DNA of 24,000 nt, taken from Metallosphaera sedula DSM 5348 (GTDB lineage Archaea; Thermoproteota; Thermoprotei_A; Sulfolobales; Sulfolobaceae). The notes beneath the pieces are model-generated. The model saw only the letters and a list, made by a program, of their open reading frames with translations, was not told the DNA's origin and ran no database searches. Both the position numbers and the translations under genes were made by a program. The DNA lies in NCBI RefSeq assembly GCF_000016605.1, contig NC_009440.1:1291789-1315788 (forward strand), in the 5' to 3' direction. This document shows positions 1 to 24,000 of the stretch, piece by piece (the first letter of the stretch is position 1; each line of letters starts with the position of its first letter).

Positions 1-2
1 TA

Positions 3-161: not shown

Positions 162-233
162 AGTTCTAGGGAGGTTTTAAATGATAATTTACGCCACGGA
201 AACCTTATTTAGTTAGGATGAGAAATTCCATTG

Positions 234-653: not shown

Positions 654-661
654 TGTTTTTC

Positions 662-1264
662 ATGATCGTGGACATTCAACATGTTGGGATTAGGGGATAT
701 GAAAGAGATTTAGGGTTGGATCTGGTTCTTCTTAACCCGTCATACAGGCTAGGTTGTCAGTGCTGTGTGGACGGTTTCTATCAACAGTATCTTTGGTCGA
801 GGGGAAGGAAGGGATACATACAGCTGGGTATTTACAATCCCAGGTGCAGGGTTCCAGTAGAGGTGGAACTGGAGAGGCAGATCAGGAAGGGGATTGTTGG
901 CGTGGTGTTGAACCCTGCAAACCACGGGTACTCCTTGAGGGAGGCCAAGAGGACAGTGGAGTACGTCAACAGGAAGAGGCTCAACCTCTACCTTTACACT
1001 AGGACGCTGTCACTTGAAGAACTTGAGGAATTGAATGACGGGCTTGACGTGAAGCTGGTGATCCTGGATCCTAGGGAAGAGATATCTCCGCTCTCTAGAG
1101 AGAGTAACGTTTACTTCAATGTCAAGGATTACTCGGGGGATTTACCAAGTAAGAGGGCAATACTAGCCACGTTTTACCCCTATGAGAGTGAGAAGGTGGC
1201 CAGGGAATTACTCTCAAGGTTTAGCTGGACTTTTGATAACTTGCTTGAACTGGTAAGTACATGA
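662..1264 (+). CDS. hypothetical protein with weak amidohydrolase/TIM-barrel-like features
   Basis: The track ORF begins at GTG 611 and overlaps the upstream gene. The internal ATG at 662 (MIVDIQHVGIRGY...) avoids that overlap. The MIVDIQH N-terminus and the GIVGVVLNPANHGY segment loosely resemble amidohydrolase-2 type proteins, but only one His of the usual HxH is present. Confidence 0.4.
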   Translation: MIVDIQHVGIRGYERDLGLDLVLLNPSYRLGCQCCVDGFYQQYLWSRGRKGYIQLGIYNPRCRVPVEVELERQIRKGIVGVVLNPANHGYSLREAKRTVEYVNRKRLNLYLYTRTLSLEELEELNDGLDVKLVILDPREEISPLSRESNVYFNVKDYSGDLPSKRAILATFYPYESEKVARELLSRFSWTFDNLLELVST

Positions 1265-1432
1265 ACTGGTAACTCACATGATGACAAGTTTTTCCGTCAA
1301 AGTAAGAGTAACTGAGCTCCGCCTTCAATTAGATCTTTAGTCTAACACGAGAAGAACTGGTGAGACGTTTCTCAATGAGCGACTTACTCATCGAGAAGTC
1401 CCACTGGGAGATACTGACGTAAGTGCACGCCC

Positions 1433-2062
1433 CTAGATCTTGAGCTGAACCTCCCTAGCCCTCCTTAGTTCTTCCATCATCTTCACAATGTCTGGGAAAG
1501 GAGTCAGTGCTTCAAGATGCTTCCTTCCATCTGATACTATCTTCACGGCCTGGGGATATATCTCGTTCAACCTCCTCAGCGCGAACGTCTTATCTGTGAC
1601 AAGACTTAGGCCAAAGTTGATATGTCTGGCCTCATCCTCTATTATGTGCTTTATTCCCTGAGTGAACCGCGTCAAGCCATATCTCTCTCCAGCGTTCCTG
1701 AGAACGTTTAGCCCGGTCGTGGCAAGAATTCCCTCAGTGACCAGGTGGAACCTGGTGACTATCCTCTGAATATCCCCGCTCTCAAAATCCTTCATAAGTT
1801 CGTCAAAGAAGTCAATATATGAGCTAGGTAGTTCCACTTCGGATAGTGGATCATCCCTGAAATAACTCTCAAAGAATTCGAAATGATCAAGCTCCTCCTG
1901 GTACTGCTGGGGTGAATATCCCCTCACGTTACCCACGAACTTCATGGATAGGGGCTTAAGAATGCTCCACCGGCTCATGTACCTCTTGGGATAAAAATGG
2001 GCTGATAAATACCTTATACCAAATCTGACCTCTTCAGGAATTTGATTCCAATTTAAGTCCAT
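1433..2062 (-). CDS. ferritin-like di-iron-carboxylate superfamily protein resembling the C-terminal half of ribonucleotide reductase R2
   Basis: The 209-aa ORF contains HLVTEGILATTG ... IIEDEARHINFG, i.e. E-x33-E-x-x-H, the same spacing as the second half-site of class I RNR R2. It has its own AT-rich upstream region, shared divergently with the fdhA-like gene. Confidence 0.55.
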   Translation of the reverse strand: MDLNWNQIPEEVRFGIRYLSAHFYPKRYMSRWSILKPLSMKFVGNVRGYSPQQYQEELDHFEFFESYFRDDPLSEVELPSSYIDFFDELMKDFESGDIQRIVTRFHLVTEGILATTGLNVLRNAGERYGLTRFTQGIKHIIEDEARHINFGLSLVTDKTFALRRLNEIYPQAVKIVSDGRKHLEALTPFPDIVKMMEELRRAREVQLKI

Positions 2063-2317
2063 ATGGATTACTGATTAAGATAAGCTAAAAACTTTTTTAT
2101 AAAAATAATTAAAATGGAACTTGGGTTGATGGAACTTGTTTAATGAAGAGATCATTTCAATGAATAACCGTTTAATAACCCTATCACTTAAGCTGGTTGG
2201 AGAAAATTAAATATGTCTAGCTTATTTAATTCGGATCATCAGTTGTTTATTTTCACATCGCATTTATCTAAAGTATATAAAATGTATATAAAGTTAAACA
2301 ACAATATAGAGATATGC

Positions 2318-2325
2318 TTTTAAAT
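2318..2325 (+). promoter_or_regulatory. TATA-like box for the fdhA-like operon (leaderless geometry)
   Basis: TTTTAAAT is centred about 25 nt upstream of ATG 2346. GGAGGT at 2339-2344 is too close to the ATG to act as a normal SD. Confidence 0.4.
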
Positions 2326-2345
2326 GTACCCAAGAAAAGGAGGTC

Positions 2346-5267: not shown

Positions 5268-5587
5268 TGGCTCAGCTCGTCGAGAGCGGGGAGGCCCTTG
5301 AGCAGTTCCTGAGGCTAGTGAACGCTCTCAACAGGTCTGGGATCCTCCCCTTCCTGATCGGACTGGCGGAAAACCTAGACGTCACGCTCTCCACACTGAC
5401 GGAACAGAACACTGGGCTAATCAAGACACTGAACGTGATATACGCTGCGCTTAACGGTGATGAGGAGGTGCAGGACGTGTCTCTCACCCAGATATTGAAG
5501 GAGTTTAACGACCCAGACGTTAAGAGAGGGCTATTGCTAGTGCTGAAGATACTTAAGGCGATAGGAAGTGCAAGTAAGCAAGGTTAA
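5267..5587 (+). CDS. DUF1641-family protein (small helical protein commonly encoded next to FdhA-like genes)
   Basis: ATG at 5267 overlaps the fdhA-like stop (TAATG, 5265-5269) and is in frame with the track ORF 5231..5587. The helical, Leu-rich sequence ends in NDPDVKRGLLLVLKILKAIG, typical of DUF1641. Confidence 0.65.
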   Translation: MAQLVESGEALEQFLRLVNALNRSGILPFLIGLAENLDVTLSTLTEQNTGLIKTLNVIYAALNGDEEVQDVSLTQILKEFNDPDVKRGLLLVLKILKAIGSASKQG

Positions 5588-6332
5588 CCTAGTCAAGGTG
5601 AAAGACGGACATACGGAGATAGACGAGGACTTCGTGGCAGTTGAGGAACCCCTGGAGATAGTTGTCTGTAATGGTGGATGTAAAACCTTCGCAATAGTCA
5701 TGAGAACACCTGGGAATGACCAAGAGCTTAGTCTGGGATTTCTCTACTCCGAGGGAGTTATTGATTCCATAGAAGATGTAGTGAAGGTAAAGCAGGAACT
5801 AAACAGGGTAGAGGTGTACCTAAGGGACGTGAAGAAACTTGAGTCCCGCCAGATAGTGGTTAACTCGAGCTGTGGGATATGCGGGAGAGCTCTCCTCTAC
5901 ACCTTGGACATCCTATCCACTAACGCTACTGTGAGCAGGGATGTGATCCTTTCGTTACCCGAGAAATTGAGAGAGAGACAGAGTGCCTTTAACGTGACAG
6001 GTGGTCTCCACGCTGCTGGACTTTTCACGAGGGAGGGGGAACTACAGTACCTCTATGAGGACGTGGGAAGGCATAACGCTGTGGACAAGGTTGTGGGGAA
6101 ACTACTCATGGAGAGAAAATTACCGGCTAACTCCAGTGTTCTCCAGGTTAGCGGAAGACTTGGATATGAGATCGTGAGCAAGGCAATTATGGCCGGGATA
6201 CCTGTAATAAGCGGAATATCTGCCCCCACTAGCTACGCAGTAAGGATAGCAGATAATGCGGGTGCAACACTGATAGGTTTCGTGAGGGGAAAAAGCTTTA
6301 ACGTATACTCTCATCCAGAGAGAATATCTTAA
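5568..6332 (+). CDS. fdhD: formate dehydrogenase accessory sulfurtransferase FdhD
   Basis: 254 aa with EEPLEIVV, the SSCGICG catalytic-loop motif and the GRHNAVDK motif. The GTG start at 5568 overlaps the DUF1641 gene by 20 nt, so the exact start is uncertain. Confidence 0.88.
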
Positions 6333-7852
6333 CTCTTGAGACCGGCCTCCTTAGCCTCTGCCTCAGACTGACTCTCTCTCCAGGGCTCGGCCTTACTCGT
6401 GAACTTCACTTCGCTCTTTCTCCCTGCTAACTTCTTCGCTACTTCCTGGGCAAAGTTCAGGTCATACAACCTGGAGAACATTATTCTCTGCGCTGCGGGA
6501 CTTCCTGCTCCATGAACAGACTCTATCTGGAAAGCCACACCCATGCTCACGTTCTCCACGAGCCTGACCATCCTCAACCTATCCTCGGCCGTGAAGTCCT
6601 CAGCTCCCTGGAGGTACCTGGATATGTACTCCTTGAGTTTGGGGTTCTTTAGGTCCCATTCACTGGGGGCTGTTCCCACAATTCCTCCTGCTAGGTCTAT
6701 GGAAAGCTGTGCAATCTGGGATGGGAACCTAGCAACCAGGTGTTTCGTGACATTAGCGTGCATGGGGTTAACCCACCAGCAGTTATCACACATTTTCACG
6801 GCATTAAGGCTCGCAGCGATTCCAGCTGAGTACATGGTCTCGGTAAGGAAGATCATCTCAGTGAGCTTATCCTGAACGTGGGACGCCCTATCAACTCCAA
6901 TCTGCTTTGCTAGATCTGCACTTGCCCCTATGATCACGTCTCCGAGTCCGGCCTTACATCCACCATAACCCTGCCTGTGATAGGCAGAGAATATCTCAAC
7001 CAGGGTTCCCGTATACTCCCACTCACCTGCCAAGAAAACCCTGTTCATGGGGACGAACACGTTATCGAAGATCACTAGACCCTCGTGATTGTAGAAGTAG
7101 GGAAGTCCGTCTATCTCACCCTCCTCCATTCTCCTCGCATCATTCAGTTGCCTCCCCACGACTATCTTGACCCCTTCGGTATCTGTCGGGATCGCGAACG
7201 CAACTGCGTAATCCTTATCCTCCGGGCCCATTGCCCTAGTGGGTAGCACGACCATCTCTTCTGTTGCCGCTACTCCCGTAATGTTAGCCTTGGCACCTGA
7301 CACGTAAATTCCATCCTTTGTGACCTCGGTTATCCTGAGGTAAGCGTTCTTGTTGGGTTGCTGACTTGGTTTAAGGTTCCTAATACCCTTCGCGTCAGTC
7401 ATGGCTCCAGCAAGGGCAAGGTCATTCTTCTGAACGTACTTGAGATATTCCACAAATCTATCCCTCACCTCGGTTTTGCCCTTCTTGGCCATCATAGTGG
7501 TCACAATGTGAAGCGTGTTCAGGGAATCCCAACCAACGCATCTCTGGAAACATGCCCCTGTTTTATGGCTCAACTTTCTCAGCAACTTAACCTTAGCAGC
7601 CAGATCATCCGGTGATCTATGAATATGATTAAACCTGTTTATCTCCTCCTCTAGGTAGGGACTCCATGCCCTGCCTAACTCCTTTGTGTCCTCTTCCCAA
7701 GCAGCGTCAAATGTAGCCTTAAAGGACATTACAGAAGGCTTAAGGAAGGGATGCTTAGTCACGTCCTTGACTTCCCTGCCCATTACGTAAATCTCCACCT
7801 TTGACCTGTTACTTATGGATTGGAGATATTGCTCCCCTGTTCTGACGACCAT
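6329..7852 (-). CDS. abfD: 4-hydroxybutyryl-CoA dehydratase / vinylacetyl-CoA isomerase (AbfD family)
   Basis: 507 aa. The [10 protein letters not shown] (C-x3-C) and [12 protein letters not shown] (H-x6-C) spacings match the 4Fe-4S ligands of clostridial AbfD. Overall length and N-terminus (TGEQYL.S) fit the 4-HPA-hydroxylase/AbfD fold family. Confidence 0.88.
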
Positions 7853-7866
7853 GCAAGTTAATAGGG

Positions 7867-7884
7867 TTTAAAGTTTTTAAAGTT
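7867..7884 (-). promoter_or_regulatory. tandem TTTAAAGTT x2, TATA-like boxes upstream of the dehydratase gene
   Basis: TTTAAAGTT occurs at 7867-7875 and again at 7876-7884. The distal copy is centred about 27 nt upstream of ATG 7852 on the minus strand. Confidence 0.3.
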
Positions 7885-7918
7885 TAGTATAATGTTCTTT
7901 TAACTGAAACTCAAAAGT

Positions 7919-9616
7919 TCACTGAAATCGTTCCAGTTCCTTGAGTGCCGAAACAACCTGTGCGTGAACGAAAACCTGGGGGAAGTTACCGGTGAACTCT
8001 AGGGTGGAGGTGTCCAGATGCTCTCCTAGGAGGTGAAGGCTGCCGGAGACCCTGTCTAACCTCTCCAGGAGATCCCTGGCCTTCCCTGTTTCGCCTAACC
8101 TTATGTAAATCCTTGCCAGCCAAAGCGTGGTGAGGAGGAAGGGATGTTTCGCCTCTCCCATGAAGTCCGAAACATATCTCTTGACGAATCCGTCCTTAAC
8201 CAGATCCCTCTCTACCCTGCGTAGGGTATTTAGAAATACCTTATCGTTAACGTCAACGAAATCGTAAAGGGGTGCCGAGAGGATCGAGGCGTCAACCTGG
8301 TCACTTCCTGGATATCTAGGAAAGTACTCTCCTGACTGTTCAAGAATCCAGGACCTCAGCTCCTCCCTAGCGTCCTTCCATCGATCCTGCATGCCTAGGG
8401 TACTCGCGATCTTCCCAGCCCTGTCCATGGCAACCCACATCATCACCTTAGAGTGAATGTAGTGCTGAGGCTCTCCCCTATCTTCCCATATCCCTGAGTC
8501 CTTCATTCTCCAGTTCTCTGCCTCCCAGTCAGCGAGATAGAAAATCTTCTCGAGGGCATCGTAAATGTATACCCTATCTCCCGTCTTCTCAAAGTACTTG
8601 TAGAGCGTTGCCATGAAAAATCCCTCGACGTCGAGCTGAACCTGAGTTGACGCCCCGTTTCCCACCGTAACCGGTCTAGATCCCCTGAAACCTGAGAGCC
8701 AGGGAAGTTTCCTCTCTGGAGGTGGGATAGTTCCCTCCACCGTGTAGAGGGGGTAGAAGAAAGGTTTCGACGAGAAGTTAATCAGGGAGAGCAAGAAGTT
8801 AATTATGTCCCTGGCCTTCACCACGTAATCCGCGTCTAGGAGGGACTCGGCGATAATAGAGGAGTCCCTTACCCACGCAAAACGGTAGTCCCAGTTCCTG
8901 GACCCACCTATCACCTCTGGTAGGGAGGTTGTGGGGGAAGCCACTGGACCTCCCGAAGGGGCGTAGATGGATCCCAGGAGAACTGCAAGTGAAGTGGTGT
9001 ATAAATCCTCTAGGTATATCCTGGACTTGGGTAGGGACCTTCTCCAGTACTCAACGGTCTTCTCAAAGGGTCTGGAGAAGTCAAGGGATAGGTGGGAGGT
9101 CCTCTCGCTCAATGGACCGTGCTTGGCATCTGATGAGTAATTAGCTACGAGATATCCCTTTCCGCTTGAGAATTTCCAGACATCGTCGCTCTCCATCTCC
9201 ACTTCTCCATCATACTCATAAAGAAACGCCACACAGTCCCTCCCCCTTGGATTGATTCTCCTATTGCCATCGGGAACTGGTCTGTAGAGACCATAATGGA
9301 ATATTGGATTGAACACAACCCTGAAGGGAAACTCGCTCTCCACCCTCCTTATAATAATGGTCTCCCCTATGGGAATAAGGTCTTGGATAACCATCTTTCC
9401 CTGGTCTGTTTCCACGTAAGTTGTGAGAACCATTGGGTCCCTGTATTCCTGAGCCATGTAAGTTACCTTTCCCGGCACCACGGAGAATTCCCCTCCCCTT
9501 TCATCAACCAACTTGGAGAAGATTGAGGGAGAGTCGAACTTGGGAACTGGAAACCAGACAACCGATGTGCCGTCAATGATAGCGGATGTTATTTGATTGG
9601 AAATGAAGCCTAACAC
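7919..9616 (-). CDS. glycoside hydrolase family 15 protein (glucoamylase/trehalase-type)
   Basis: 565 aa with a GTG start. N-terminal GFISN....A.IDG..VVW...PKFDSPSIF. NWDYRFAWVRDSS. GIWEDRGE (general-acid Glu region). LLGEHLD (general-base Glu region). Confidence 0.85.
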   Translation of the reverse strand: MLGFISNQITSAIIDGTSVVWFPVPKFDSPSIFSKLVDERGGEFSVVPGKVTYMAQEYRDPMVLTTYVETDQGKMVIQDLIPIGETIIIRRVESEFPFRVVFNPIFHYGLYRPVPDGNRRINPRGRDCVAFLYEYDGEVEMESDDVWKFSSGKGYLVANYSSDAKHGPLSERTSHLSLDFSRPFEKTVEYWRRSLPKSRIYLEDLYTTSLAVLLGSIYAPSGGPVASPTTSLPEVIGGSRNWDYRFAWVRDSSIIAESLLDADYVVKARDIINFLLSLINFSSKPFFYPLYTVEGTIPPPERKLPWLSGFRGSRPVTVGNGASTQVQLDVEGFFMATLYKYFEKTGDRVYIYDALEKIFYLADWEAENWRMKDSGIWEDRGEPQHYIHSKVMMWVAMDRAGKIASTLGMQDRWKDAREELRSWILEQSGEYFPRYPGSDQVDASILSAPLYDFVDVNDKVFLNTLRRVERDLVKDGFVKRYVSDFMGEAKHPFLLTTLWLARIYIRLGETGKARDLLERLDRVSGSLHLLGEHLDTSTLEFTGNFPQVFVHAQVVSALKELERFQ

Positions 9617-9689
9617 ACCTAGTTTAGGAGTTGGGCTATTAAACTGTTTGGGACGACAAAGATTAATATTCTTTATCTCATTTTATCTT

Positions 9690-10844
9690 ATGAAATTCTT
9701 AATACTTGGAGCAGGGTATGCAGGACTTACCGTGGCTCATAAGTTGAGGAGGTACCTCAATGACGAGATAACCGTTATCTCTGAGTCTAGGGTGGTGAGA
9801 GAAAACACAATTTTCCCGCTTCTCCTCACGGACGAGGTGAAGGTCGAGGAAACTGAATTTGACGCCAAGGTAGCCATGGAGAGGAAGGGAGTGAACTTCG
9901 TGGAGGGTAGGGTGACGCAGATCCTGCCTGAGAGCAGGGAGGCCAAGACGGACAAGGGAACCTTTGACTATGACTATCTCTTCCTAGCCCTCGGTGGAGG
10001 ATATGAGGAGAACTTCAGGAGGATACCTGGACATGAGAACGCAGTCATGCATCACACCCTGGATGGATTCCTCAAGCTTAAGGAAATGCTGTGGAACACT
10101 GAGGGGAACGTGTTCGTAGGTAACGCGCCAGGGAGTCCCATAGAGGGTCCCTCGTATCAGGTCGCCCTCATAGCTGAGTACATTCTTAGGAGGAGAGGGG
10201 TGAAGGGGAAGGTTTACCTGGCTACGCAAAGTCCCAAGGGTGTCTTTGGCCCAATTCCCTTGGACTGGGTTCACGAGAAGGCCAACTCATACTTCGAGAG
10301 GAGGGGTATAAGCGTCCTCAAGGGTAAAGCCGTAAAGGAGATTAAGAGAGGGAAAGTAGTCTTGAGCGACGGCCAAGAAGTGGAGGCTGATGTGATCTCC
10401 GTGCTTCCCTCACTCTCTGCGCCAAAGGTGGTTAGAGATGCTGGACTTGCGGGAAATTCAGGTTTCGTTGAGGTGAAGTTACCAAGTTTTAGGAAGGATG
10501 ACAGGATATTTGCCCTAGGAGACCTGGCCCAGACTCCCTTCCCTAGGACAGCTAGGGCAGCAATGATCTCCGCAGAGAATGCAGTCTCGTCAGTGTTAAG
10601 GGAGGTCAAGGGACTGGAGTTGCCCATGTACTCCCTAGGTGTTCTATGCGTGATGGAGGGAGGAGATGACGGTGGAATTCTTAGATTCGATACGAATGGG
10701 AAAGAGGTGAAAACCACGCTAGCCTTTGGAAAGAGTTACGTCACCATCAAGAAACTCTACAGTAAACTTCTAGTCAAGAGGGCCTTTGATGTTCCCTATC
10801 ACGGAGCGCTAACAGTTGAAATACGCTACAACTTCTCTCCTTAA
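9690..10844 (+). CDS. FAD-dependent pyridine-nucleotide-disulfide-type oxidoreductase (SQR/NDH-2 family)
   Basis: The ATG at 9690 gives MKFLILGAGYAGLTVAHKL (a GxGxxG Rossmann start). The track N-terminal extension from 9597 overlaps the divergent GH15 gene. ATTAATATT at 9662-9670 lies about 24 nt upstream of this ATG. The C-terminal ALGD motif is typical of the family. Confidence 0.75.
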   Translation: MKFLILGAGYAGLTVAHKLRRYLNDEITVISESRVVRENTIFPLLLTDEVKVEETEFDAKVAMERKGVNFVEGRVTQILPESREAKTDKGTFDYDYLFLALGGGYEENFRRIPGHENAVMHHTLDGFLKLKEMLWNTEGNVFVGNAPGSPIEGPSYQVALIAEYILRRRGVKGKVYLATQSPKGVFGPIPLDWVHEKANSYFERRGISVLKGKAVKEIKRGKVVLSDGQEVEADVISVLPSLSAPKVVRDAGLAGNSGFVEVKLPSFRKDDRIFALGDLAQTPFPRTARAAMISAENAVSSVLREVKGLELPMYSLGVLCVMEGGDDGGILRFDTNGKEVKTTLAFGKSYVTIKKLYSKLLVKRAFDVPYHGALTVEIRYNFSP

Positions 10845-11139
10845 TAAGAAATTATGAACTCGCGCGTCATATACGCCGTTTCCTTGATATTTGAGCTTTT
10901 ATCCGTAGATGATCTTAAACCATATAATATCGATCTAATATCCTTAGATGCCCAATCAGACCCGGTTACTTGCCGGTTCTCATCAGGATTAATGGAGTTA
11001 GATTTCCTTTCCTATCAAATGGATTAGTAGTCTATGAACCCCAGATAAATCATTTTTGCGTGTCATGAAATTGGTGATACCAGAAATATAAGCTCACTTG
11101 AGTGAATACCTGGAAATCCATCAGTATCGTTACCTCCTA

Positions 11140-16627: not shown

Positions 16628-17536
16628 TTATCCAATCGCGGTAACAGTGCCTTCAGGTTGATATATGTATTCGGATAAAGTCAGTGGCGAACCGATATTT
16701 GGCGTTATTTGAATATTGATGGTCTGATATTCGAATACATGCTGTCCCAGATTAGGGCCGAATAATATCATGAAGCCTACTGTAGATCCGGCAGGGGCAA
16801 TGGCACTTCCAACTAGTGGATCTCCAGCAACAGGATATGAGAACGCGAATGTTTGATTAATGAACACATAGTACAATACTTTTTGCCCAGCTATAGTTAA
16901 AGTGAAAGTAAAATTATTATCATTTTTAAGCCATGAAGGCTCTGGGTTGGTGCTGGAGAACGAGGTGTAATTGATATAAATTGGTGAATGTCCGCTAACT
17001 TTGGATAGAGATTGATTTAAAGCTAATAATGCTAAATACGGGCTTGAGAAATAATAGTAAGTATTACCTCCGCTAGTTAAATTACTTTCAAGAGTCAGAG
17101 AATAGCCACTTGCAGATACAGGAGTTAAATGGGTATCAGTAAGTAGTGTATATTTGTAAATATTAGAAAGTGTAATGCCCTCCTCTGTGGCTATAAATGA
17201 AAGTCCAGTTGTGGCAGGATCTAATTCTACGCTAGAAACTCCGGAGGTCGGACTTACTGTGAAATAAATCCAGTAGCTCTTTGTATTACTTGGATAGTTC
17301 ACTGCATAAAGCACCGAACTAGATACTGTTAGAGCCGTAGAAGCCGTCTCTTCACCCTTATTTATAGTAGTTTTAGCTTTTTGCGTAACGAATAGGCCCA
17401 TATTTATAGCTACGAAGGCTAGCACGGAGGCGGTTATTATAAATGCTATTAATATTATTGCTGTATCCAATCCAGCTAGCCCTCTTCGCCTTACCAATTT
17501 ATTATATTTTTGGACCAGACCTCTAATTTTTCCCAT
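16628..17536 (-). CDS. arlB: archaellin ArlB (FlaB)
   Basis: 302 aa. Class III signal peptide with a basic leader and ...RRRG/LAGLDTAIILIAFIITASVLAFV. Five N-x-S/T sequons (NLT, NQS, NYT, NFT, NQT). First gene of the operon. Confidence 0.92.
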   Translation of the reverse strand: MGKIRGLVQKYNKLVRRRGLAGLDTAIILIAFIITASVLAFVAINMGLFVTQKAKTTINKGEETASTALTVSSSVLYAVNYPSNTKSYWIYFTVSPTSGVSSVELDPATTGLSFIATEEGITLSNIYKYTLLTDTHLTPVSASGYSLTLESNLTSGGNTYYYFSSPYLALLALNQSLSKVSGHSPIYINYTSFSSTNPEPSWLKNDNNFTFTLTIAGQKVLYYVFINQTFAFSYPVAGDPLVGSAIAPAGSTVGFMILFGPNLGQHVFEYQTINIQITPNIGSPLTLSEYIYQPEGTVTAIG

Positions 17537-17596: not shown

Positions 17597-17611
17597 TCGA
17601 CCCAAAGTCGA
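17597..17611. promoter_or_regulatory. palindrome TCGAC-CCAAA-GTCGA just upstream of the arlB TATA box (candidate regulator site)
   Basis: Perfect 5-bp arms with a 5-bp spacer, centred about 22 bp upstream of the TATA centre. It has the same CGAC-N5-GTCG core as the site at 17977-17989. Confidence 0.35.
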
Positions 17612-17811
17612 TGATTTTACCGACGCGGATCACACAATAAAAGGTAGTTTCAAGATTTTATCTTAAATAATATCTAGCTTTAACAATATTTCCACGAAAT
17701 AAAACATGGTGTCGTCATGTCAGCATAAATGAGTCCGCATGAAGATAGAATCAGGAATCCAATCACGAACCATGAAAATTGTGCCACTGTAATGACATCA
17801 TGAAATAAAAC

Positions 17812-17853
17812 AAAGAGTGTATATATTTTTAAAAAGAGTGTATATATTTTTAA
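17812..17853. repeat. perfect 21-bp tandem duplication (AAAGAGTGTATATATTTTTAA x2)
   Basis: Read directly. Unit 1 is 17812-17832 and unit 2 is 17833-17853, and they are identical. The repeat is mirrored in the repeated LKIYTLF of the spurious ORF 17680..17895. Confidence 0.95.
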
Positions 17854-17976
17854 GATGAGATCCGTAAGAGCTTTCTTAATCCCTGCATACTTCACAGATT
17901 AATATCCAGGAAATCAACGGAGAACTTGAAACAATAATGCTCGATCCTTAACAAATATCATCTTCATGCCCAATTG

Positions 17977-17989
17977 CGACTTAGAGTCG
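17977..17989. promoter_or_regulatory. palindrome CGAC-TTAGA-GTCG upstream of the 18034 operon TATA box (candidate regulator site)
   Basis: 4-bp arms with a 5-bp spacer, centred about 25 bp upstream of the TATA centre at 18005-18012. Confidence 0.3.
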
Positions 17990-18004
17990 AAACCACAACT
18001 TCTC

Positions 18005-18033: not shown

Positions 18034-18498
18034 ATGCCTTACTTTCTAGGATACGAAGTGTTCACAAATGCTAGCAATCCAATTTACATTTTCTATATCT
18101 TTAACTTTACAAATCATAGTGTATTAATCAGTACAGTCAATCCTGTTACCCACACTATCCTAAACTATACGTCTGCTATTCCTAGCTTTCTTCTAGTTAC
18201 TTCCGTAAACGGGACCCCTGTCTCATTTCATCTCCAAGGCCTCTCTATCCCTGCATTTGAGGTAATGAGAAACGGAATTTACATCTATTCCACAAAGGGA
18301 GTGCTGCTAGAACAAGTAAATAACAACGGAAACATGACGCTGATTTACGCAAATTTTCCTGGACTTACCAGTCAATCCCTCCCCAGTCTGCACGGGTTAG
18401 CTGGGAATATCGTTCTCTTCCCTGTCAATATTATAACCCTTCTTGGGATTGTTCTCTCGCTCCAGCTGTTTTTGATACTTAAAAAGGTGATTAGATGA
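18034..18498 (+). CDS. beta-rich, N-x-S/T-rich protein with a single C-terminal TM helix and basic tail (copy 1); no N-terminal signal peptide seen
   Basis: 154 aa. Six sequons (NAS, NFT, NHS, NYT, NGT, NMT). Alternating hydrophobic beta-like segments. C-terminus IVLFPVNIITLLGIVLSLQLFLILKKVIR. Paralog of 23346..23822 (shared ILNYT[ST]..P.FL[LV]). Confidence 0.6.
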   Translation: MPYFLGYEVFTNASNPIYIFYIFNFTNHSVLISTVNPVTHTILNYTSAIPSFLLVTSVNGTPVSFHLQGLSIPAFEVMRNGIYIYSTKGVLLEQVNNNGNMTLIYANFPGLTSQSLPSLHGLAGNIVLFPVNIITLLGIVLSLQLFLILKKVIR

Positions 18499-19250
18499 TA
18501 GTTGTTAAACGGGATTTCGCGTGGTTTTCAGCTGGTCTGGCCTTCTTGGCAATAGTGTTCTCCCAAGGGATTGACATCACACTAGGTAGAACAACATTTC
18601 TGAACGTTTACGAACTACCGATGTATTCCATTATACTTAATATTCTTGCTTCTATTTTCTTGGCATTTAACAAGGGTTACTATATTTACGCGATTCCAAT
18701 TTCATTTCTGAGCTATTTGATTCATCCTGAATTAATTAGTATAATTATTTTCGGATTAGCGCTGACAGCCGTGAAGGGAATTCCAACTTTCGCTAGGGAC
18801 GTTCTCCTTGGAATAGATGCCTTTGGGATAATATATGTATTACTAGCCCTCATGTCTATAAAAATAAATTTTCTCCTTCTACCAATCATGGCAATTCAAG
18901 CTGGAACCCCCATTCTAATTCCTTTGGTCCTAATCTTCGGGATACTCTACGGGCTAAAGAGAGATACTATAACGGAAACAATGAAATTCCCCATAACCTT
19001 AACAGTACTCATTACATTATTAATTACCACCTTACCGCTCACCGCCATCAATTCTCTTGGAAAATCAGAGACTGTGGACTGGATATACTATGCCAGTTGG
19101 ATATCCTCCCCCTCAGTAGGATGGTTCTTCTTTTCTAGGCCACTATACTTGGTTCTGCTATATCCCTTCGGAAAATTAATTGGCCCTGATATAGTCTCAC
19201 AGTGGCAAATTCCTGTTCTTTCCTTGATTTTCATCTTTTCAGCCTATTAG
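18495..19250 (+). CDS. polytopic membrane protein, N-terminal part (ends at in-frame TAG 19248-19250; probably one gene with 19305..19949)
   Basis: 251 aa with many TM helices and no Cys. AGGTGA lies 4 nt upstream of the ATG, and there is an ATGA overlap with the preceding stop. Confidence 0.6.
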   Translation: MIVVKRDFAWFSAGLAFLAIVFSQGIDITLGRTTFLNVYELPMYSIILNILASIFLAFNKGYYIYAIPISFLSYLIHPELISIIIFGLALTAVKGIPTFARDVLLGIDAFGIIYVLLALMSIKINFLLLPIMAIQAGTPILIPLVLIFGILYGLKRDTITETMKFPITLTVLITLLITTLPLTAINSLGKSETVDWIYYASWISSPSVGWFFFSRPLYLVLLYPFGKLIGPDIVSQWQIPVLSLIFIFSAY

Positions 19251-19304
19251 CTAGGGAATTCGGTCAAGGAGGGATTAGGTCCCCTAGCAGCTCTCTTAGC
19301 TGGA

Positions 19305-19949
19305 GTGTCTCCTACACTTCTAACATTCCTTTATTCAGGTTTGCAAGCAAATTTCTTCTCATTATCCATGATATATCTGTCCCTGGCCTATCTCCTAAGG
19401 CAGGAGACGGGAAGGGCAATACTATTTTCTTACCTATCTTTGCTATCCCACGTGTATGCTTGGGCCCAGCTAGAGGGAGGAATTGTTATCTTTATAATTA
19501 CCTACTACCTCATGAAACGCGAATTACCAGCCCATTTTAGGAGATACACACTTTTTACAGGACTTCCACTGGTCCTAGGTCTGGTGGTGATGTTTATGGG
19601 AATACTTCCTGTCCCACTAGGTTTCTCGGTTAATAGCTACATGAGTCAAATAACTGTGTTAAGTTGGGGAACAATAAACGCATTTCTATACTACGCCATC
19701 TCGGTTTATGGTCTAACTAAGTCTCCAAGACTAATTTACGTAATTTTTGCGTCCTCTGTTCTGGCAACCTTGGTTCTTGGGGTGGTCCAGAACTTGATAA
19801 TCGACATCCCGTTATTCATACCCGCATCCCTGGGAGTACTCAAGTTGAATTCCAAACTGAGGATTCCGGTTCTCGTCCTTTTCGTGATATGGGCGCTAAT
19901 CATGTCCCTCAACAGCTTCCCCTATCTGTATAATGGGGTGACCATATGA
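19305..19949 (+). CDS. polytopic membrane protein, C-terminal part (same frame as 18495..19250; GTG start is only nominal)
   Basis: The frame is identical to the upstream ORF, with only TAG plus 18 sense codons between them. A GTG 19305 start would fall inside a predicted helix (GPLAALLAGVSPTLLTFLY). The stop overlaps the ParA-like ATG (ATGA at 19946-19949). Confidence 0.5.
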   Translation: MSPTLLTFLYSGLQANFFSLSMIYLSLAYLLRQETGRAILFSYLSLLSHVYAWAQLEGGIVIFIITYYLMKRELPAHFRRYTLFTGLPLVLGLVVMFMGILPVPLGFSVNSYMSQITVLSWGTINAFLYYAISVYGLTKSPRLIYVIFASSVLATLVLGVVQNLIIDIPLFIPASLGVLKLNSKLRIPVLVLFVIWALIMSLNSFPYLYNGVTI

Positions 19950-20638
19950 TGAGAAAGATCATTATAACGGGGGTAAAGGGAGGTACTGGAAAGTCGCTTA
20001 TATCTTTTCTCCTACTGAGAGAATTGGTAAATACAAAGAGAGTACTTTTCATTGATCTAGATAATACCCTGACAGTTACTAGATTATTGGGAATTCTTCA
20101 TCTTGATGACATATTTAATAATGACTATAACGTTAGTTCTTGGACCTACAAAAATGTTAGCATAATACCACTAGGTGTTGCAAATCAAGGAAAATTGCAG
20201 GAATTTCCTAAAGCATATATGGATCTCGTAGAAGATAAAGATATTATCATGATAGATTCCTCCAACATCACTAATCCAGTCCTTAGCCTTGAAGCCAAAT
20301 TGAGCCCCCAAAGCGAATTAGATCTTATCTTGGTTACTACGCCCCAATCTATTTCACTAAAGAGAACCATTGATACCTTACTATCCTTTAAGACGATTTA
20401 CCCCATAGCACCTTCACAGAAGCTCGTGGTTTTAAACATGACTAAGGAGGAGGTTCAGGAGCTTCAGAACGATATTCCTTTTGTAAAAATACCCTTCATT
20501 AAGGAACTATTTCTTAAAGGAATCTCAGCAGAATCATGTGAATATCCATCTATTCTAGCCTCCATAAGAGATATTTTGTATATTTTGGACCTGACCAAGA
20601 TATTAGGTGATAATAATGGAAATAAAAGAGTTTATTGA
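19946..20638 (+). CDS. ParA/MinD-family (SIMIBI, deviant Walker A) ATPase, copy 1
   Basis: 230 aa. GVKGGTGKS deviant Walker A with the signature Lys. VLFIDLD (A'/switch I). DIIMIDSS (Walker B). The small size and lack of an N-terminal HTH resemble type Ib ParA / SegA / MinD. Confidence 0.8.
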   Translation: MMRKIIITGVKGGTGKSLISFLLLRELVNTKRVLFIDLDNTLTVTRLLGILHLDDIFNNDYNVSSWTYKNVSIIPLGVANQGKLQEFPKAYMDLVEDKDIIMIDSSNITNPVLSLEAKLSPQSELDLILVTTPQSISLKRTIDTLLSFKTIYPIAPSQKLVVLNMTKEEVQELQNDIPFVKIPFIKELFLKGISAESCEYPSILASIRDILYILDLTKILGDNNGNKRVY

Positions 20639-20990
20639 GGGGAACAAAAAGACGATAATTCTAGATGAGGACCTTCACAGAATCATTACATTCAGGATCG
20701 ATAGGGAGACCAACAAACGACTAGAGGAATTATCTGCAAAGCTCAATGTTACTAAAACAAAACTAATATTGAACATGATAATGAAATTTCTTGCTGAAGA
20801 TGAGCAGAGGAGAATCCTCATTCTTCAATATCCGGTAACCATAAATTCAAACTCCATAATTGGAGTAAGGGTCACTGAGTCGTTACTCTCCATGTTCATA
20901 GAAAAAGTACCTACGGAATATCCCTACACAGTAGCTCTAAGAAAAATTGTAACATTCTATACTAATGATATTCGCGAAAATATTTTATGA
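20616..20990 (+). CDS. ribbon-helix-helix DNA-binding protein, apparently with two RHH repeats in one chain
   Basis: ATG 20616 is preceded by AGGTGA (20605-20610); the track start is GTG 20607. Repeat 1 is RIITFRIDRETNKRLEELSAKLNVTKTKLILNMIMKFL (strand-helix-turn-helix pattern). Repeat 2 is SIIGVRVTESLLSMFIEKVPTEYPYTVALRKIVTFY. It overlaps the 3' end of the ParA-like gene. Confidence 0.6.
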   Translation: MEIKEFIEGNKKTIILDEDLHRIITFRIDRETNKRLEELSAKLNVTKTKLILNMIMKFLAEDEQRRILILQYPVTINSNSIIGVRVTESLLSMFIEKVPTEYPYTVALRKIVTFYTNDIRENIL

Positions 20991-21028
20991 CTTTCTATCA
21001 TTTCCTCAAGAGGGTTGTTAGCAAAGAG

Positions 21029-21038
21029 TTTTTAAATT
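21029..21038 (+). promoter_or_regulatory. TATA-like box for 21060 gene (leaderless geometry)
   Basis: TTTTTAAATT is centred about 26 nt upstream of ATG 21060 and is preceded by AAAGAGT, as in the 21-bp repeat unit. Confidence 0.4.
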
Positions 21039-21059
21039 GTATGAAACCAACCTTCTTAT

Positions 21060-21461
21060 ATGAGAATAGTTGTAATACTGCCTACGATAGTCTTCTCAAT
21101 CATGACAGCTGCTGCGTTCTATTTTAACGATATTCTACTAGTACTATTGGCTTTACCATTATTATTTATACAATATTTTGTAACTAAGAGCCATGAAATA
21201 GTTGATCAAGAAAGCCTTAATGCATACATAAAACATGCATATGGTATCTCCTGCGAAGGGATCATCTCCTTCACTGAAGACCTTGAGCTATATCTTTACT
21301 TCCCTTCTAAAATGAAGGATAATACGGCCATGGTAAGCAGAGATAAATGTGTGATTAAGATCAACGGAACTGTAAAATCAATGGAGGTTTATGAGGGAAT
21401 AGAGGAAGCTGTCACAAAATTATGTAAACCGAGGATAAATAAGATCTCAAGCTTAAATTAA
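21060..21461 (+). CDS. small membrane protein (two N-terminal TM helices plus a ~85-aa soluble domain with 3 Cys), unknown function
   Basis: 133 aa. MRIVVILPTIVFSIMTAAAFYFNDILLVLLALPLLFIQYFV is followed by a polar domain. Its stop is 4 nt from the convergent ParA-like copy 2 stop. Confidence 0.5.
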   Translation: MRIVVILPTIVFSIMTAAAFYFNDILLVLLALPLLFIQYFVTKSHEIVDQESLNAYIKHAYGISCEGIISFTEDLELYLYFPSKMKDNTAMVSRDKCVIKINGTVKSMEVYEGIEEAVTKLCKPRINKISSLN

Positions 21462-21465
21462 GATC

Positions 21466-22146
21466 TCACATTATATTCTCCACTATTTCAACTAATTCGT
21501 ACAATTCCTTTGGTGGTTCACAATTCTGAAAGCCATTATATAGTAGGTCCCTGTAGAAAGGTACTTTGATAACCCTTATTCCAGGAACTTCTATATCCTG
21601 GTTTTTCACCATATTAGCCACAAGAGCCAGTATCTCGAGAGATATTATTTTTGGAATCATCTGCTTAAGTATTTTTCTATATTCCTCTACAAAGGCCAAA
21701 GCTCGGTCTAGTTGAAGGGCTGGAGTAGTGACAGGGATGAAATAAGAGTCCGATCCCTCCACGGTCTTATAATAGGCCTTATACTCCATTAGTTCTATCT
21801 CGCCTATCCCGCCAGGCGAATTATCAGTTATTACGATATCTGCACCCTTCAAGATATTACCATAGATGGGATAAAATTTCTCCAGAGATGGAATATTACT
21901 AGGTTGAAATCTAGCCAGCGATACAACCTTGAGGTTACGATCTTCGTAAACAAATTCGCCACTTATATCATCTGCCAAATAATTGAATAACCCAATTTTT
22001 ATTCCGAAAATAGAACTTATAGTTGCTGTTAAATCGCGATCTATAAGTACAACTTTATATTTATTACTAAGCAATTTAGATAGATAGTAAGCAATAGTAG
22101 ATTTACCTACTCCTCCCTTAGGACTCACAACAGCAATACGAATCAT
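21466..22146 (-). CDS. ParA/MinD-family (deviant Walker A) ATPase, copy 2 (paralog of 19946..20638)
   Basis: 226 aa. SPKGGVGKST, VVLIDRD, DIVITDNSPGG. It shares VTTP, NM[TV]K, [IV]K[IV]PF.[KR][DE]L...G and CE.P segments with copy 1. Confidence 0.8.
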   Translation of the reverse strand: MIRIAVVSPKGGVGKSTIAYYLSKLLSNKYKVVLIDRDLTATISSIFGIKIGLFNYLADDISGEFVYEDRNLKVVSLARFQPSNIPSLEKFYPIYGNILKGADIVITDNSPGGIGEIELMEYKAYYKTVEGSDSYFIPVTTPALQLDRALAFVEEYRKILKQMIPKIISLEILALVANMVKNQDIEVPGIRVIKVPFYRDLLYNGFQNCEPPKELYELVEIVENIM

Positions 22147-22167
22147 GATATAATAATACCGTCTTAT

Positions 22168-22177
22168 TTTTATAAAA
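22168..22177 (-). promoter_or_regulatory. TATA-like box for ParA-like copy 2 (leaderless geometry)
   Basis: TTTTATAAAA (self-complementary) is centred about 26 nt upstream of ATG 22146. Confidence 0.4.
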
Positions 22178-22204
22178 GGACTTAGTAGTTTCGACTACCT
22201 ATCC

Positions 22205-23068
22205 TCATTTCCTTGTTCCAAGAAATGCCATTATACTAGAAAGAGTGTAAAATACTAGAAAATAGAGCCATATGGTAGCAGCTATATGGTCTATGGGGCT
22301 TTTGTAGAAATAGAAAATAATTGGAGATATTATAGCAAATATTATTAAAAGTTTAAAAATAGCGTAATCCAGCCTAGTACTGAGAGTGGAGCGCAAAATG
22401 AATTTAAGGAAAATATTGTTTCTCATTTTGTGAATGCCGGGAATCTTTCCCAGAACTTTCTTTCCCTCGTCTGTAATCAGCCATTCTACCTTTAAACCTG
22501 AGACACTTTTTCTATTTATTCTCTTAAAGAATTTATAGCGCACAGATAACACTTCTAAGTAATTTATGATAGTTCTTTTAGAGACGCCCAGTTCTTTGGA
22601 AAGTGCGGTAACGGGGACTTTACCATCGTTTATCATTGCAGCTTTACCAATTTCTACAAAATAGTAGTAATGATTCAGGTTATGCATTATATCCATTTCT
22701 CCATCTATAGTGTTCCGGTCCTGAACAAAATTTGAGTATGAGCTAATATCCTTAGGATTACCGTTGGAACCGTTAAGAGGTTCCCTTAAATATGATAGCG
22801 TGGAAAGCTTCTCAAGTAAACTCCTGCCTGTGGCTGACAGGTCATATATATCATATTTAACTCTTTCAACGAGGCCTTTAGCGATAAGCTTCCTAATGGA
22901 GTCTATCGAAGCCTTCTTGTTAACGCCTATACCCTTTGATATTTCTGATATTGAGGATGCTCCCTTCTCTGACAAGAAGAGCATTATTTTCCATTGAATC
23001 TCGCCCTTAGCAAAATCAATACTTTCGTCCAGCTCCCTCAATATATCCATAAGGTCGTTAGTCCCCAT
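22205..23068 (-). CDS. membrane-anchored winged-HTH transcription regulator, ArnR-like (archaellum regulator family)
   Basis: 287 aa. N-terminal wHTH (KIMLFLSEKGASSISEISKGIGVNKKASIDSIRKLIAKGLVERV). A second HTH-like segment (VTALSKELGVSKRTIINYLEVLS). Two C-terminal TM helices (LLIIFAIISPIIFYFY and IWLYFLVFYTLSSIMAFLG). The architecture and the proximity to arlB match ArnR/ArnR1 described in Sulfolobus acidocaldarius. Confidence 0.6.
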   Translation of the reverse strand: MGTNDLMDILRELDESIDFAKGEIQWKIMLFLSEKGASSISEISKGIGVNKKASIDSIRKLIAKGLVERVKYDIYDLSATGRSLLEKLSTLSYLREPLNGSNGNPKDISSYSNFVQDRNTIDGEMDIMHNLNHYYYFVEIGKAAMINDGKVPVTALSKELGVSKRTIINYLEVLSVRYKFFKRINRKSVSGLKVEWLITDEGKKVLGKIPGIHKMRNNIFLKFILRSTLSTRLDYAIFKLLIIFAIISPIIFYFYKSPIDHIAATIWLYFLVFYTLSSIMAFLGTRK

Positions 23069-23345
23069 TATCTTCTATATTAAAGAAAATGAGGAATATA
23101 AAATATTAAGGTCGTTTTCCGGGAATAATCACGTTAAGTTTTCAAACGATGTTACGCTAAAATCATTTATGAGGGTTAGTATATTACTTTACCGTAATAT
23201 TTAAACATATTCATGTAATTCACTATTCTCGATCATAAAAATTTAAATATAATCAATTGGAAAAGGAGTTTATGTGCGCTGAATATAGCCAAGCGATCGA
23301 AATTTCTGGAGATTCTTAATATTGTTGATACCTATAAACACAATC

Positions 23346-23822
23346 ATGGATTTAATTAATCAGACATTACTTTATGCTGTTAGCACATCTGGCCATCTAG
23401 CATACTTCCTGTTGATAAAAATAGTCGCAGTTTCCAATGGATCAATAACGGTAAACGCTACAAACATCCAACCTAATGGTGTTATTTTAAATTACACAAC
23501 GGGTATGCCCCTATTCCTTGTGATCTATAATGGTAGTGGACAGCCTTCTGGGGAGATATTCAATGTTCCAGTGGATAGGGTATCTGTTCCAGGCTACACG
23601 TTATATGTGGATCAATACAACGGCCTCGTTCTCTCCTATATTTCAGCTAATCAAAATTTTACCCTAAACGGCTCCACCATACCCATAGGACCAGGAAAGA
23701 CTTTACCCATTATTTTGCCTTTTCAAAAACAGACAAACTATACCTATGAGGTTCTTTTGCTAAGTTCTGTTCTTGTTTTATCCTTCTATCTCCTGTTTAG
23801 GAGAGGATCGTCTCATGATTAG
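23346..23822 (+). CDS. beta-rich, N-x-S/T-rich protein with a C-terminal TM helix and basic tail (copy 2)
   Basis: The track start is TTG 23322. ATG 23346 aligns better with copy 1, and TTAATATT at about 23315-23322 lies about 27 nt upstream. Eight sequons. C-terminus YEVLLLSSVLVLSFYLLFRRGSSHD. Confidence 0.55.
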   Translation: MDLINQTLLYAVSTSGHLAYFLLIKIVAVSNGSITVNATNIQPNGVILNYTTGMPLFLVIYNGSGQPSGEIFNVPVDRVSVPGYTLYVDQYNGLVLSYISANQNFTLNGSTIPIGPGKTLPIILPFQKQTNYTYEVLLLSSVLVLSFYLLFRRGSSHD

Positions 23823-24000
23823 ATACGAGTTAACTTATTTAGGAAGGGCCTTCGTTGCCTCATCTATCATTCTCCTTCTTCTATCTGCTATTTTCTTTAT
23901 GAGTGATCAAGACTTATCCAATACCATGGGAGACTTTACTTATTTCTTTCTTGTCATAGGAGTGTTATTAGTAGGAGCAGGGAAATTGCCAGACGATGAC
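23815..24000 (+). CDS. membrane protein, N-terminal fragment (presumed copy 2 of the polytopic membrane protein); continues beyond the window
   Basis: ATG 23815 overlaps the preceding gene by 8 nt. The frame is open to the window end: MIRYELTYLGRAFVASSIILLLLSAIFFMSDQDLSNTMGDFTYFFLVIGVLLVGAGKLPDDD, with two hydrophobic helices. It has the same gene order as 18034/18495. Confidence 0.5.
   Translation, partial: MIRYELTYLGRAFVASSIILLLLSAIFFMSDQDLSNTMGDFTYFFLVIGVLLVGAGKLPDDD

Follow-up and report, generated by a model that had tools for sequence, protein, structure and literature searches.

A candidate ArnR-controlled accessory gene block beside the archaellum locus of Metallosphaera sedula and other Sulfolobales

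On the chromosome of Metallosphaera sedula DSM 5348, a block of genes (Msed_1331-1339) starts on the opposite strand from the archaellin gene arlB and includes an ArnR-like regulator gene, which raises the question of what these genes do beside an archaellum locus. We studied the block in a window of 24,000 nucleotides (NC_009440.1, positions 1,291,789 to 1,315,788), which was assigned to the Metallosphaera sedula/prunae chromosome by exact look-up. No mention of Msed_1331-1338 was found in the papers searched. The block encodes a small anchored protein (A1), a polytopic membrane protein (B, or B1 in this window), a ParA/MinD-superfamily ATPase (ParA1), an RHH protein, a small membrane protein (E), a second ATPase (ParA2), the ArnR-like regulator, and a paralogue of A1 (A2) followed by a small protein with two transmembrane (TM) helices. 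A previous reading of the DNA made without database searches (the sequence-only reading) took a duplicated trio of ParA-type ATPase, anchored protein and polytopic protein as the unit, and proposed either a positioning or assembly module associated with the archaellum or a surface structure, or a domesticated partition cassette. Our analysis tentatively points to an ArnR-controlled accessory arm of the archaellum, in which A and B would form a glycosyltransferase-like complex acting on archaellin or the envelope, and ParA and RHH would be regulators or positioners resembling FleN or MinD. We hold this reading with slightly less than even confidence.

Loci were gathered via B homologues from genomes and metagenomes, and were annotated with family hidden Markov models (HMMs) built for this analysis. 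A scan of genome contigs with an ArlX profile yielded three loci, and the conservation counts cover the loci holding B. Close B homologues formed a handful of clusters, all from Sulfolobales, and none was found away from arlB-linked loci. At every locus with a close B homologue, in about nine lineages, arlX-arlB was followed by A-B on the opposite strand. These lineages included M. sedula/prunae, an M. yellowstonensis-type lineage, two Acidianus-type lineages, Sulfodiicoccus and a related metagenomic lineage, and A-B was further found in two Saccharolobus-type lineages, one other lineage and Candidatus Aramenus. E and ArnR lay within about 4 kb in every A-B lineage, with E located by ArnR. Most lineages had a second A copy, and A2 was always followed by the conserved small two-TM protein. 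The neighbourhood conservation that the sequence-only reading had proposed to check is thus real for A-B, which is divergent from arlB in about nine lineages.

The ParA and RHH genes showed a different distribution. They followed B directly only in Metallosphaera and Acidianus-type loci, where the start/stop overlaps (four bases or longer) of A/B, B/ParA1 and ParA1/RHH were all kept. In Saccharolobus, RHH and three ParA genes were located downstream of A2, and the Sulfodiicoccus, L016 and L024 loci lacked both ParA and RHH (L numbers denote the gathered loci). Because the placement of ParA-RHH varies among lineages, the conserved unit consists of A-B, E, ArnR, and A2 with its small protein, and ParA/RHH are recurrent but optional. 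The trio proposed earlier is therefore not the unit.

Two kinds of loci had features of their own. Sulfodiicoccus-type loci carry a gene for a soluble protein of 221-225 aa between A2 and E (L003 12091-12768; L016 12045-12710), which had no Pfam match and has an ArnR-box-like palindrome 42-45 nt upstream. In the metagenome-assembled genome of Ca. Aramenus (L012 5341-8667), A (64 + 70 aa) and ArnR (47 aa) look fragmented beside a B of 461 aa, reflecting either gene decay or assembly errors.

Within the window, both ParA-like genes, the RHH gene and the ArnR-like gene of the sequence-only reading were confirmed (Table 1). The coordinates of its chain of open reading frames (ORFs) from 18034 to 20990 were also confirmed: ATGA overlaps join A1 to B1 (18495-18498) and B1 to ParA1 (19946-19949), and the ATG of RHH at 20616 is preceded by AGGTGA (20605-20610), both within the 3' end of ParA1.

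Table 1 Features of the arlB-A2 region, numbered from the first nucleotide of the window.
Feature	Position	Strand	Remark
arlB, archaellin, Msed_1330	16628..17536	-	divergent from block; orthologues match Pfam Flagellin_arch-type
Perfect ArnR box TCGAC-CCAAA-GTCGA	17597..17611	.	60 nt upstream of arlB ATG
ArnR-box-like palindrome GCGAC-TTAGA-GTCGA, 1 mismatch	17976..17990	.	43 nt upstream of A1 ATG
A1, Msed_1331, 154 aa, beta-rich, sequon-enriched, single C-terminal TM helix	18034..18498	+	
B1, Msed_1332/1333, GT-C-like polytopic membrane protein, broken by in-frame TAG	18495..19949	+	
ParA1, Msed_1334, divergent ParA/MinD-superfamily ATPase, KGGTGKS	19946..20638	+	start overlaps B stop, ATGA
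RHH protein, Msed_1335	20616..20990	+	start within ParA1 3' end
E, Msed_1336, 133 aa, two N-terminal TM helices	21060..21461	+	
ParA2, Msed_1337, ParA/MinD-superfamily ATPase	21466..22146	-	same strand as ArnR-like gene, 58 nt downstream
ArnR-like membrane-bound winged helix-turn-helix (wHTH) regulator, Msed_1338	22205..23068	-	
A2, Msed_1339, A1 paralogue	23346..23822	+	alternative TTG start at 23322
Small two-TM protein, A2 partner, continues past window end	23815..24000	+	79-88 aa in full genomes

The regulator gene points to a link between the block and archaellum control. Its product matched the NCBIfam ArnR model NF041016 (E 4e-70, 236 bits, under the equivalog cut-off of 400) as well as HTH_24, its sequence has two C-terminal hydrophobic helices, and the gene adjoins the arl genes; the sequence-only reading had recognized it correctly. 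According to Lassak et al. 2013 (quoted in PMC6396743), ArnR boxes in the arlB promoter of S. acidocaldarius have the sequence TCGAC-N5-GTCGA. In the window, the box on the A1 side lies just upstream of the TATA-like element TTTAAATAAA, and the arlB box is likewise upstream of a TATA-like element. A scan of the 24 kb allowing one mismatch at most gave exactly these two matches (0.31 expected), both in the arlB/A1 intergenic region, and only 3 of 100 shuffles reached two matches. In the loci of other lineages, no box at this stringency was found ahead of the B, ParA, RHH, E or ArnR genes, which had a few two-mismatch matches only.

The placement of the boxes recurred in other lineages. The arlB box position was found again in L005, L014 and L027, and A-family genes had a box 43-48 nt upstream in L001, L022, L014, L027 and L003. 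The distance was 43 nt from A in both Acidianus-type loci and 43 nt from the second A gene in Sulfodiicoccus. Both Saccharolobus-type loci have an intergenic region of 123 bp with one shared box, 59-60 nt from arlB and 47-48 nt from A. From this placement we infer membership of the A1-B-ParA1-RHH operon in the ArnR regulon. Together with the strict synteny with arlB, the boxes ahead of arlB and A1 support the association with the archaellum that had been suggested.

The arlB/A1 intergenic region also holds a perfect tandem repeat of a 21-nt AT-rich unit (AAAGAGTGTATATATTTTTAA x2) at 17812-17853, within a probably spurious ORF of 71 aa (17680-17895, minus strand). M. prunae and strain MJ1HA have the repeat as well, and its exact flank had no match in genome L005, which is more distant.

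It could be argued that the synteny reflects only a shared use of ArnR, and that the block serves a general, starvation-induced modification of surface glycans or lipids. In S. acidocaldarius, which swims without A-B, the aapF and upsX promoters are bound by ArnR as well (PMC6396743), and distant relatives of B occur in general polysaccharide contexts. However, A-B is directly divergent from arlB in nine of nine lineages, the two in places being separated by 123 bp that hold one box, and no close B homologue was found elsewhere. We consider a function that is not specific to the archaellum rather unlikely.

The central gene of the conserved pair is broken in the type strain. The membrane ORF of about 480 aa, which the sequence-only reading took as intact, is split by an in-frame TAG at 19248-19250 into 251 and 214 aa (Msed_1332/1333), and three other Metallosphaera genomes have AAG at this site and a B protein of 484 aa. 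B is a pseudogene in DSM 5348. Since B has been knocked out by a nonsense mutation in this strain, the module is dispensable in culture. At 65 C, M. sedula MJ1HA, whose B allele is intact (BBL47441.1; locus L007), is highly motile (bioRxiv 10.1101/2023.10.27.564410), and we count this strain as a natural control for an archaellum-related function of the block.

B resembles glycosyltransferases of the GT-C type in fold. Its AlphaFold model is all-helical, with a mean predicted local distance difference test (pLDDT) score of 65.5 and values of 70-92 over residues 160-370, and the protein has about 14 hydrophobic segments, exceeding the eight TM helices expected at least of a GT-C enzyme. The top four Foldseek matches of the model in the Protein Data Bank (PDB) were two entries of ArnT, a 701-residue STT3A-sized translocon chain and ALG12, all with probabilities of 0.99-1.00 but with E-values of 0.05-0.13 and TM-scores of 0.29-0.42. 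The next matches were PimE, PIG-U and ALG9, and transporters outside GT-C had probabilities of 0.06 or less. The queries for sequence searches were the single B sequence and profiles of 9 and 48 sequences, and the sole PDB matches were designed helical proteins. There was no Pfam match for B or its eight close homologues, GT-C profiles included; weak, sub-threshold matches to Pfam PMT_2 or STT3 were seen in 5 of the 48 wider family members, and the PMT_2 match corresponds to residues about 240-360 of B. D195 and R215 are invariant in the 48 sequences. D195 is located in a loop (181-203) just ahead of the PMT_2-like region, together with N186, P187 and Y199, and R215 follows the loop. The loop is predicted to face outward, judging from the order of helices in the model and from the positive-inside rule. 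In the model, B looks like a GT-C core placed after about seven extra N-terminal TM helices and devoid of a soluble domain. We consider it fairly probable that B has a GT-C fold. The structure and profile searches proposed by the sequence-only reading, which had missed both the GT-C likeness and the pseudogene state of B, thus gave a fold resemblance for B, and sequence profiles returned nothing meaningful and the model of A was unusable.

A profile search of 1.8 billion representatives recovered 84 relatives of B, the majority of them 500-600 aa in length and not adjoining arl genes. Of two distant relatives whose neighbourhoods were inspected, one lies by a Wzx-type flippase gene and the other by GT4 and overlapping phosphodiesterase genes. 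Some relatives are longer than B, and the idea that they are A-B fusions was rejected, since no A-profile match was found in them.

A GT-C fold may also be non-catalytic. B could be a scaffold or lipid-binding platform like PIG-U, which together with A would help the archaellum pass or anchor in the membrane and S-layer, with no sugar transferred. In favour of this, the fold matches include PIG-U chains, B is devoid of a soluble domain, its very first loop contains no conserved acidic residue, and the synteny with arlB is strict. However, the top fold matches are catalytic enzymes, Asp195 and Arg215 are invariant, and the N-P...P-x-V-D..YY loop is kept in 48 distant homologues away from arl genes. 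Such conservation in proteins not linked to arl genes favours a shared chemistry over an archaellum-specific scaffold, and we regard the scaffold as improbable.

The A family is known only from Sulfolobales. A1 and A2 share 28% identity over 80 aa (E 4e-6) and the ILNYT motif, and they fall into one HMM family, indicating that they are distant paralogues. Strands and one C-terminal helix were predicted for A, and the 16 family members contain 98 N-X-S/T sequons, compared with 31 expected from shuffles. The sequon richness seen by the sequence-only reading is real. The sequons are enriched threefold over the shuffled controls, which suggests that A has an N-glycosylated ectodomain. Comparisons by hhalign of the A family with ArlF, ArlG, ArlB and the E family showed no relationship (probability 1% or less). 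The structure model had a pLDDT of 47.6 and was unusable, so no fold search was made with it.

The first two genes of the block were said to recur at 23346/23815. This holds for A, as A2 is a paralogue sharing the ILNYT motif. The ORF at 23815, however, encodes an unrelated protein of 79-88 aa in complete genomes, with no significant BLAST similarity to B (E 0.03), and was rejected as a second copy of B. Only the A and ParA genes are thus duplicated. The small two-TM protein (47-88 aa) always overlaps the end of A2 and has a conserved LGR...LG[DN][FY][ST]Y motif (window 23815-24000; L005 10470-10736; L014 13299-13481; L001 14077-14220). This A2 partner is previously undescribed. The next gene on this strand in Metallosphaera, after A2 and the small protein, is a third ParA gene (266 aa).

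Both ATPases of the block passed the Pfam CbiA cut-off of 25.4 bits (ParA1, 39.8; ParA2, 48.1) and carry the superfamily signature of xKGGxGK[ST] with DxD and hhhhD switch motifs, in the form of GVKGGTGKS, IDLD and IIMID in ParA1 and SPKGGVGKS, IDRD and IVITD in ParA2. Full-length identity between the two is 27% (E 2e-15), and the paralogy that had been claimed, including KGGxGKS in both, stands. However, ParA1 and ParA2 scored 20.5 and 24.2 bits on the archaeal MinD model TIGR01969 (cut-off 201.75), and 14.1 and 30.2 bits on the ParA partition model NF041546 (cut-off 180). Their nearest solved relatives are archaeal MinD for ParA1 (E 0.013) and PF-32 for ParA2 (E 3e-6). Judged by these scores, the two proteins are orphan, highly divergent members of the ParA/MinD superfamily. 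In a neighbour-joining tree, the ParA1 genes located after B in Metallosphaera and Acidianus-type loci formed one clade, and the ParA2 genes located after ArnR formed another. ParA2 lies directly behind the ArnR-like gene, and the same ArnR-ParA pair was found in L008. The 58-nt spacer between the two genes (22147-22204) contains a TATA-like run and the palindrome GTAGT-TTCG-ACTAC (22185-22198) with a TCGAC half-site, and ParA2 may have its own promoter.

The RHH gene reported by the sequence-only reading is real: its product scored 21.4 bits on Pfam RHH_3, just under the cut-off of 21.6, and for the S. islandicus orthologue RHH_1 gave 26.2 bits (cut-off 20.5). In Metallosphaera, the RHH protein exceeds the Acidianus and Saccharolobus orthologues (66-74 aa) by about 55 aa, and the extension (residues about 65-124, window 20790-20990) looks by eye like a second strand-helix-helix unit. 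The Metallosphaera arl locus has five ParA/MinD paralogues, three of them past the window end after A2 and the small protein (L005 10788-13899), and S. islandicus has three in the same neighbourhood (L014 15118-18973). The extra paralogues in both all carry KGGxGK[ST]. Downstream of the ParA cluster, at a distance of a few kb, is a pair resembling a HEPN/nucleotidyltransferase toxin-antitoxin system (L005 15779-16514).

The abundance of ParA genes allows a positioning system, the main idea of the sequence-only reading, to be considered, in which ParA1 and RHH would pattern on the nucleoid or membrane and place A/B or the archaellum motor at a single site of the coccoid cell, with A and B being cargo or anchors and not enzymes. 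In two genera, translation of ParA1 and RHH is coupled to that of A-B. Behind A2 and its small TM partner there is a further ParA gene in Metallosphaera, and RHH and ParA genes in Saccharolobus, and the number of paralogues at the Metallosphaera (five) and S. islandicus (three) loci is high. S. acidocaldarius archaella were described as being at one pole only (PMC11607397), and Haloferax MinD4 and MinD2 offer a precedent. However, the Sulfodiicoccus, L016 and L024 loci keep A-B-E-ArnR without ParA and RHH, and the place and copy number of ParA differ among genera, so that it does not belong to the conserved core. ParA1 also fails the archaeal MinD model (20.5 bits vs 201.75), and B appears enzyme-like by the fold and motif evidence. 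A ParA-centred system is therefore unlikely in our view, although less so than the two alternatives above.

The other possibility raised by the sequence-only reading was a domesticated partition cassette, that is, a ParA and an RHH centromere-binding protein of plasmid or viral origin, domesticated or resident, inserted by the arl operon. The pair is laid out as in a type Ib partition operon, with the RHH gene as adjacent centromere-binding gene overlapping the 3' end of ParA1, and the block has a G+C content of 0.34-0.40, compared with 0.45-0.51 in the first half of the window. However, ParA1 had no tblastn match in plasmid or phage collections, B had none there either, and neither B nor ParA1 had relatives in IMG/VR viral contigs. 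PHROG matches were at superfamily level only (ParA and RHH), and PADLOC detected no defence system. No integrase was found, no tRNA was present in the window, and 19900-21500 held no repeat array, the sole tandem repeat of the region being the 2 x 21 nt at 17812-17853; neither iterated centromere repeats nor a plasmid or virus location was found. In addition, ParA1-RHH occupies the same place in two genera and is flanked by housekeeping genes, and the upstream half of the window encodes housekeeping metabolism. The lower G+C is the only hint of foreign origin and is outweighed by the cross-genus synteny. The block is chromosomal and not mobile. We rejected the mobile-element, defence-system and partition-site readings, all of these checks (plasmid, phage and IMG/VR searches, PADLOC, tRNA and repeats) being negative, and a partition cassette is very improbable.

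Among the ordinary chromosomal genes at window 1-11000 are those for a formate-dehydrogenase-like molybdopterin oxidoreductase with FdhD, an HpaB-family (4-hydroxybutyryl-CoA dehydratase-like) protein, a GH15 glucoamylase-like protein and a pyridine-nucleotide disulphide oxidoreductase.

Starting from the synteny, box placement, paralogy, nonsense mutation and sequon enrichment, we infer how an ArnR-controlled accessory arm might work. Under starvation, ArnR would turn on A-B(-ParA1-RHH) along with arlB. B would be a divergent GT-C-type glycosyltransferase using a lipid-linked sugar donor, with Asp195 in the first outward loop of its core, and A, made in a fixed ratio with B, would supply the extracellular part that B lacks in having no soluble domain. 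On the outer face of the membrane, the two together would modify archaellin or the envelope around the archaellum as it forms. The lineage-specific ParA1-RHH and ParA2 would most likely tune the expression or placement of the machinery via RHH or ArnR, as FleN/FlhG or MinD4 do, and would not partition a replicon. A bolder version, which we think doubtful, is that A-B is an unrecognized glycosyltransferase system dedicated to the archaellum, perhaps the elusive non-AglB transferase, for example an O-mannosyl or glycan-extending enzyme. ParA/RHH would then be a new crenarchaeal mechanism coupling ArnR to archaellum number or position in hosts without Che proteins or canonical MinD.

Several observations weigh against the accessory arm. 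The type strain tolerates the nonsense allele of B. B had no sequence match in Pfam, NCBIfam or PDB, and its Foldseek E-values (0.05-0.13) were marginal, with low TM-scores and a model of mean pLDDT 65. No signal peptide was recognizable in A, and its model could not be used. At the M. yellowstonensis-type locus, no box with one mismatch at most lies ahead of the A1 copy, and arlB and the second A copy have 2-mismatch box matches only. Each promoter here has a single good box, whereas in S. acidocaldarius ArnR required the two boxes together for binding in vitro (PMC6396743). In addition, the S. acidocaldarius archaellum at 2.0 A showed six N-glycans and no O-glycan, and the Sulfolobales O-glycosyltransferase was called elusive (PMC11607397). 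This species builds working archaella without room for A-B and with N-glycans only on ArlB. Because S. acidocaldarius has working archaella without A-B, the module is not needed for archaellum assembly itself.

Knowledge of the regulation and assembly of the crenarchaeal archaellum comes nearly all from S. acidocaldarius, which by coordinates has no A-B, A2 or linked ParA/RHH between arlB and ArnS. The block thus offers a short list of candidate archaellum accessory genes, open to genetic work in hosts such as S. islandicus REY15A. B is a candidate filament-linked membrane glycosyltransferase at a time when the Sulfolobales O-glycosyltransferase is still elusive (PMC11607397), and with its 84 representatives it forms a Pfam-unassigned branch of GT-C-like proteins. 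The orphan ATPase family may link the regulation of the archaellum to its placement. DSM 5348 (TAG) and MJ1HA or M. prunae (AAG) provide a natural mutant pair for B.

The described system closest in position is the Saci_1179/ArnR neighbourhood of S. acidocaldarius (PMC4307647, PMC5007285, PMC8578740), where arlB is likewise transcribed away from the gene of a small membrane protein, and arnR comes next. The published coordinates are 993370-994284 (-) for arlB, 994427-994804 (+, 125 aa) for Saci_1179 and 994943-995752 (+) for arnR, followed by arnS. They leave 142 bp between arlB and Saci_1179, so there is no room for A-B, and unlike the Metallosphaera block, the arlB-ArnS segment has ArnS after arnR and no ParA, RHH or A2. 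Saci_1179 is a small membrane protein conserved in Sulfolobales fla loci, whose deletion did not deregulate archaella (PMC4307647), and, lying between arlB and arnR, it is part of the ArnRAB iModulon (PMC8578740). E (the Msed_1336 family) is its probable counterpart, by size, strand and position only. The sequence-only reading had held that the block matches no known system. One part of this had been anticipated, since Makarova et al. 2016 (PMC4858521) had linked FleN/MinD-type ATPases in general terms to the loci of archaeal type IV pili. The pair A-B is undescribed, and its absence from S. acidocaldarius explains why.

B shares with the GT-C enzymes ArnT, PMT, STT3/AglB, ALG12 and PimE the fold matches, the weak PMT_2/STT3 matches in the wider family, many TM helices, and an invariant Asp in a predicted outward loop with short juxtamembrane helices just before the PMT_2-like bundle. 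It differs from them in lying below all Pfam thresholds, in its seven or so extra N-terminal TM helices, and in having no soluble acceptor-binding domain. Type Ib partition operons are exemplified by ParF-ParG of TP228 and delta-omega of pSM19035. As in ParA1-RHH, the small ParA lacks an N-terminal HTH, and its gene is overlapped by the RHH gene that comes next. In contrast to them, ParA1-RHH is chromosomal, has no repeat array and no plasmid or virus relatives, is fused to membrane-protein genes, and has a motility regulator box ahead of its operon.

FleN/FlhG and the haloarchaeal MinD4/MinD2, which act on flagellum or archaellum number and placement, are comparable as deviant Walker A ATPases in a motility cluster. 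ParA1 and ParA2 differ in falling far under the MinD/ParA cut-offs, in the distance of the closest structure of ParA1 (E 0.013), and in the pairing with RHH. FleN antagonizes the master activator FleQ, and ParA2 lies directly behind the gene of the master activator ArnR.

For A-B, the best bacterial analogy is the pilin accessory cassettes of Pseudomonas aeruginosa, pilA-tfpW(-tfpX), with the GT-C protein TfpW, and pilA-tfpO (PMC11841053; bioRxiv 10.1101/2020.04.19.049825). Unlike the genes of these cassettes, A-B is divergent from the subunit gene and not downstream of it, and has its own regulator box. TfpW has no detectable sequence similarity to B, and TfpX/Y/Z have three TM helices, whereas A is C-terminally anchored and beta-rich. 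What the two arrangements have in common is a glycosyltransferase-like polytopic protein and a small anchored accessory protein encoded beside a type IV filament subunit gene, here A-B next to arlB, with a presence that depends on the lineage.

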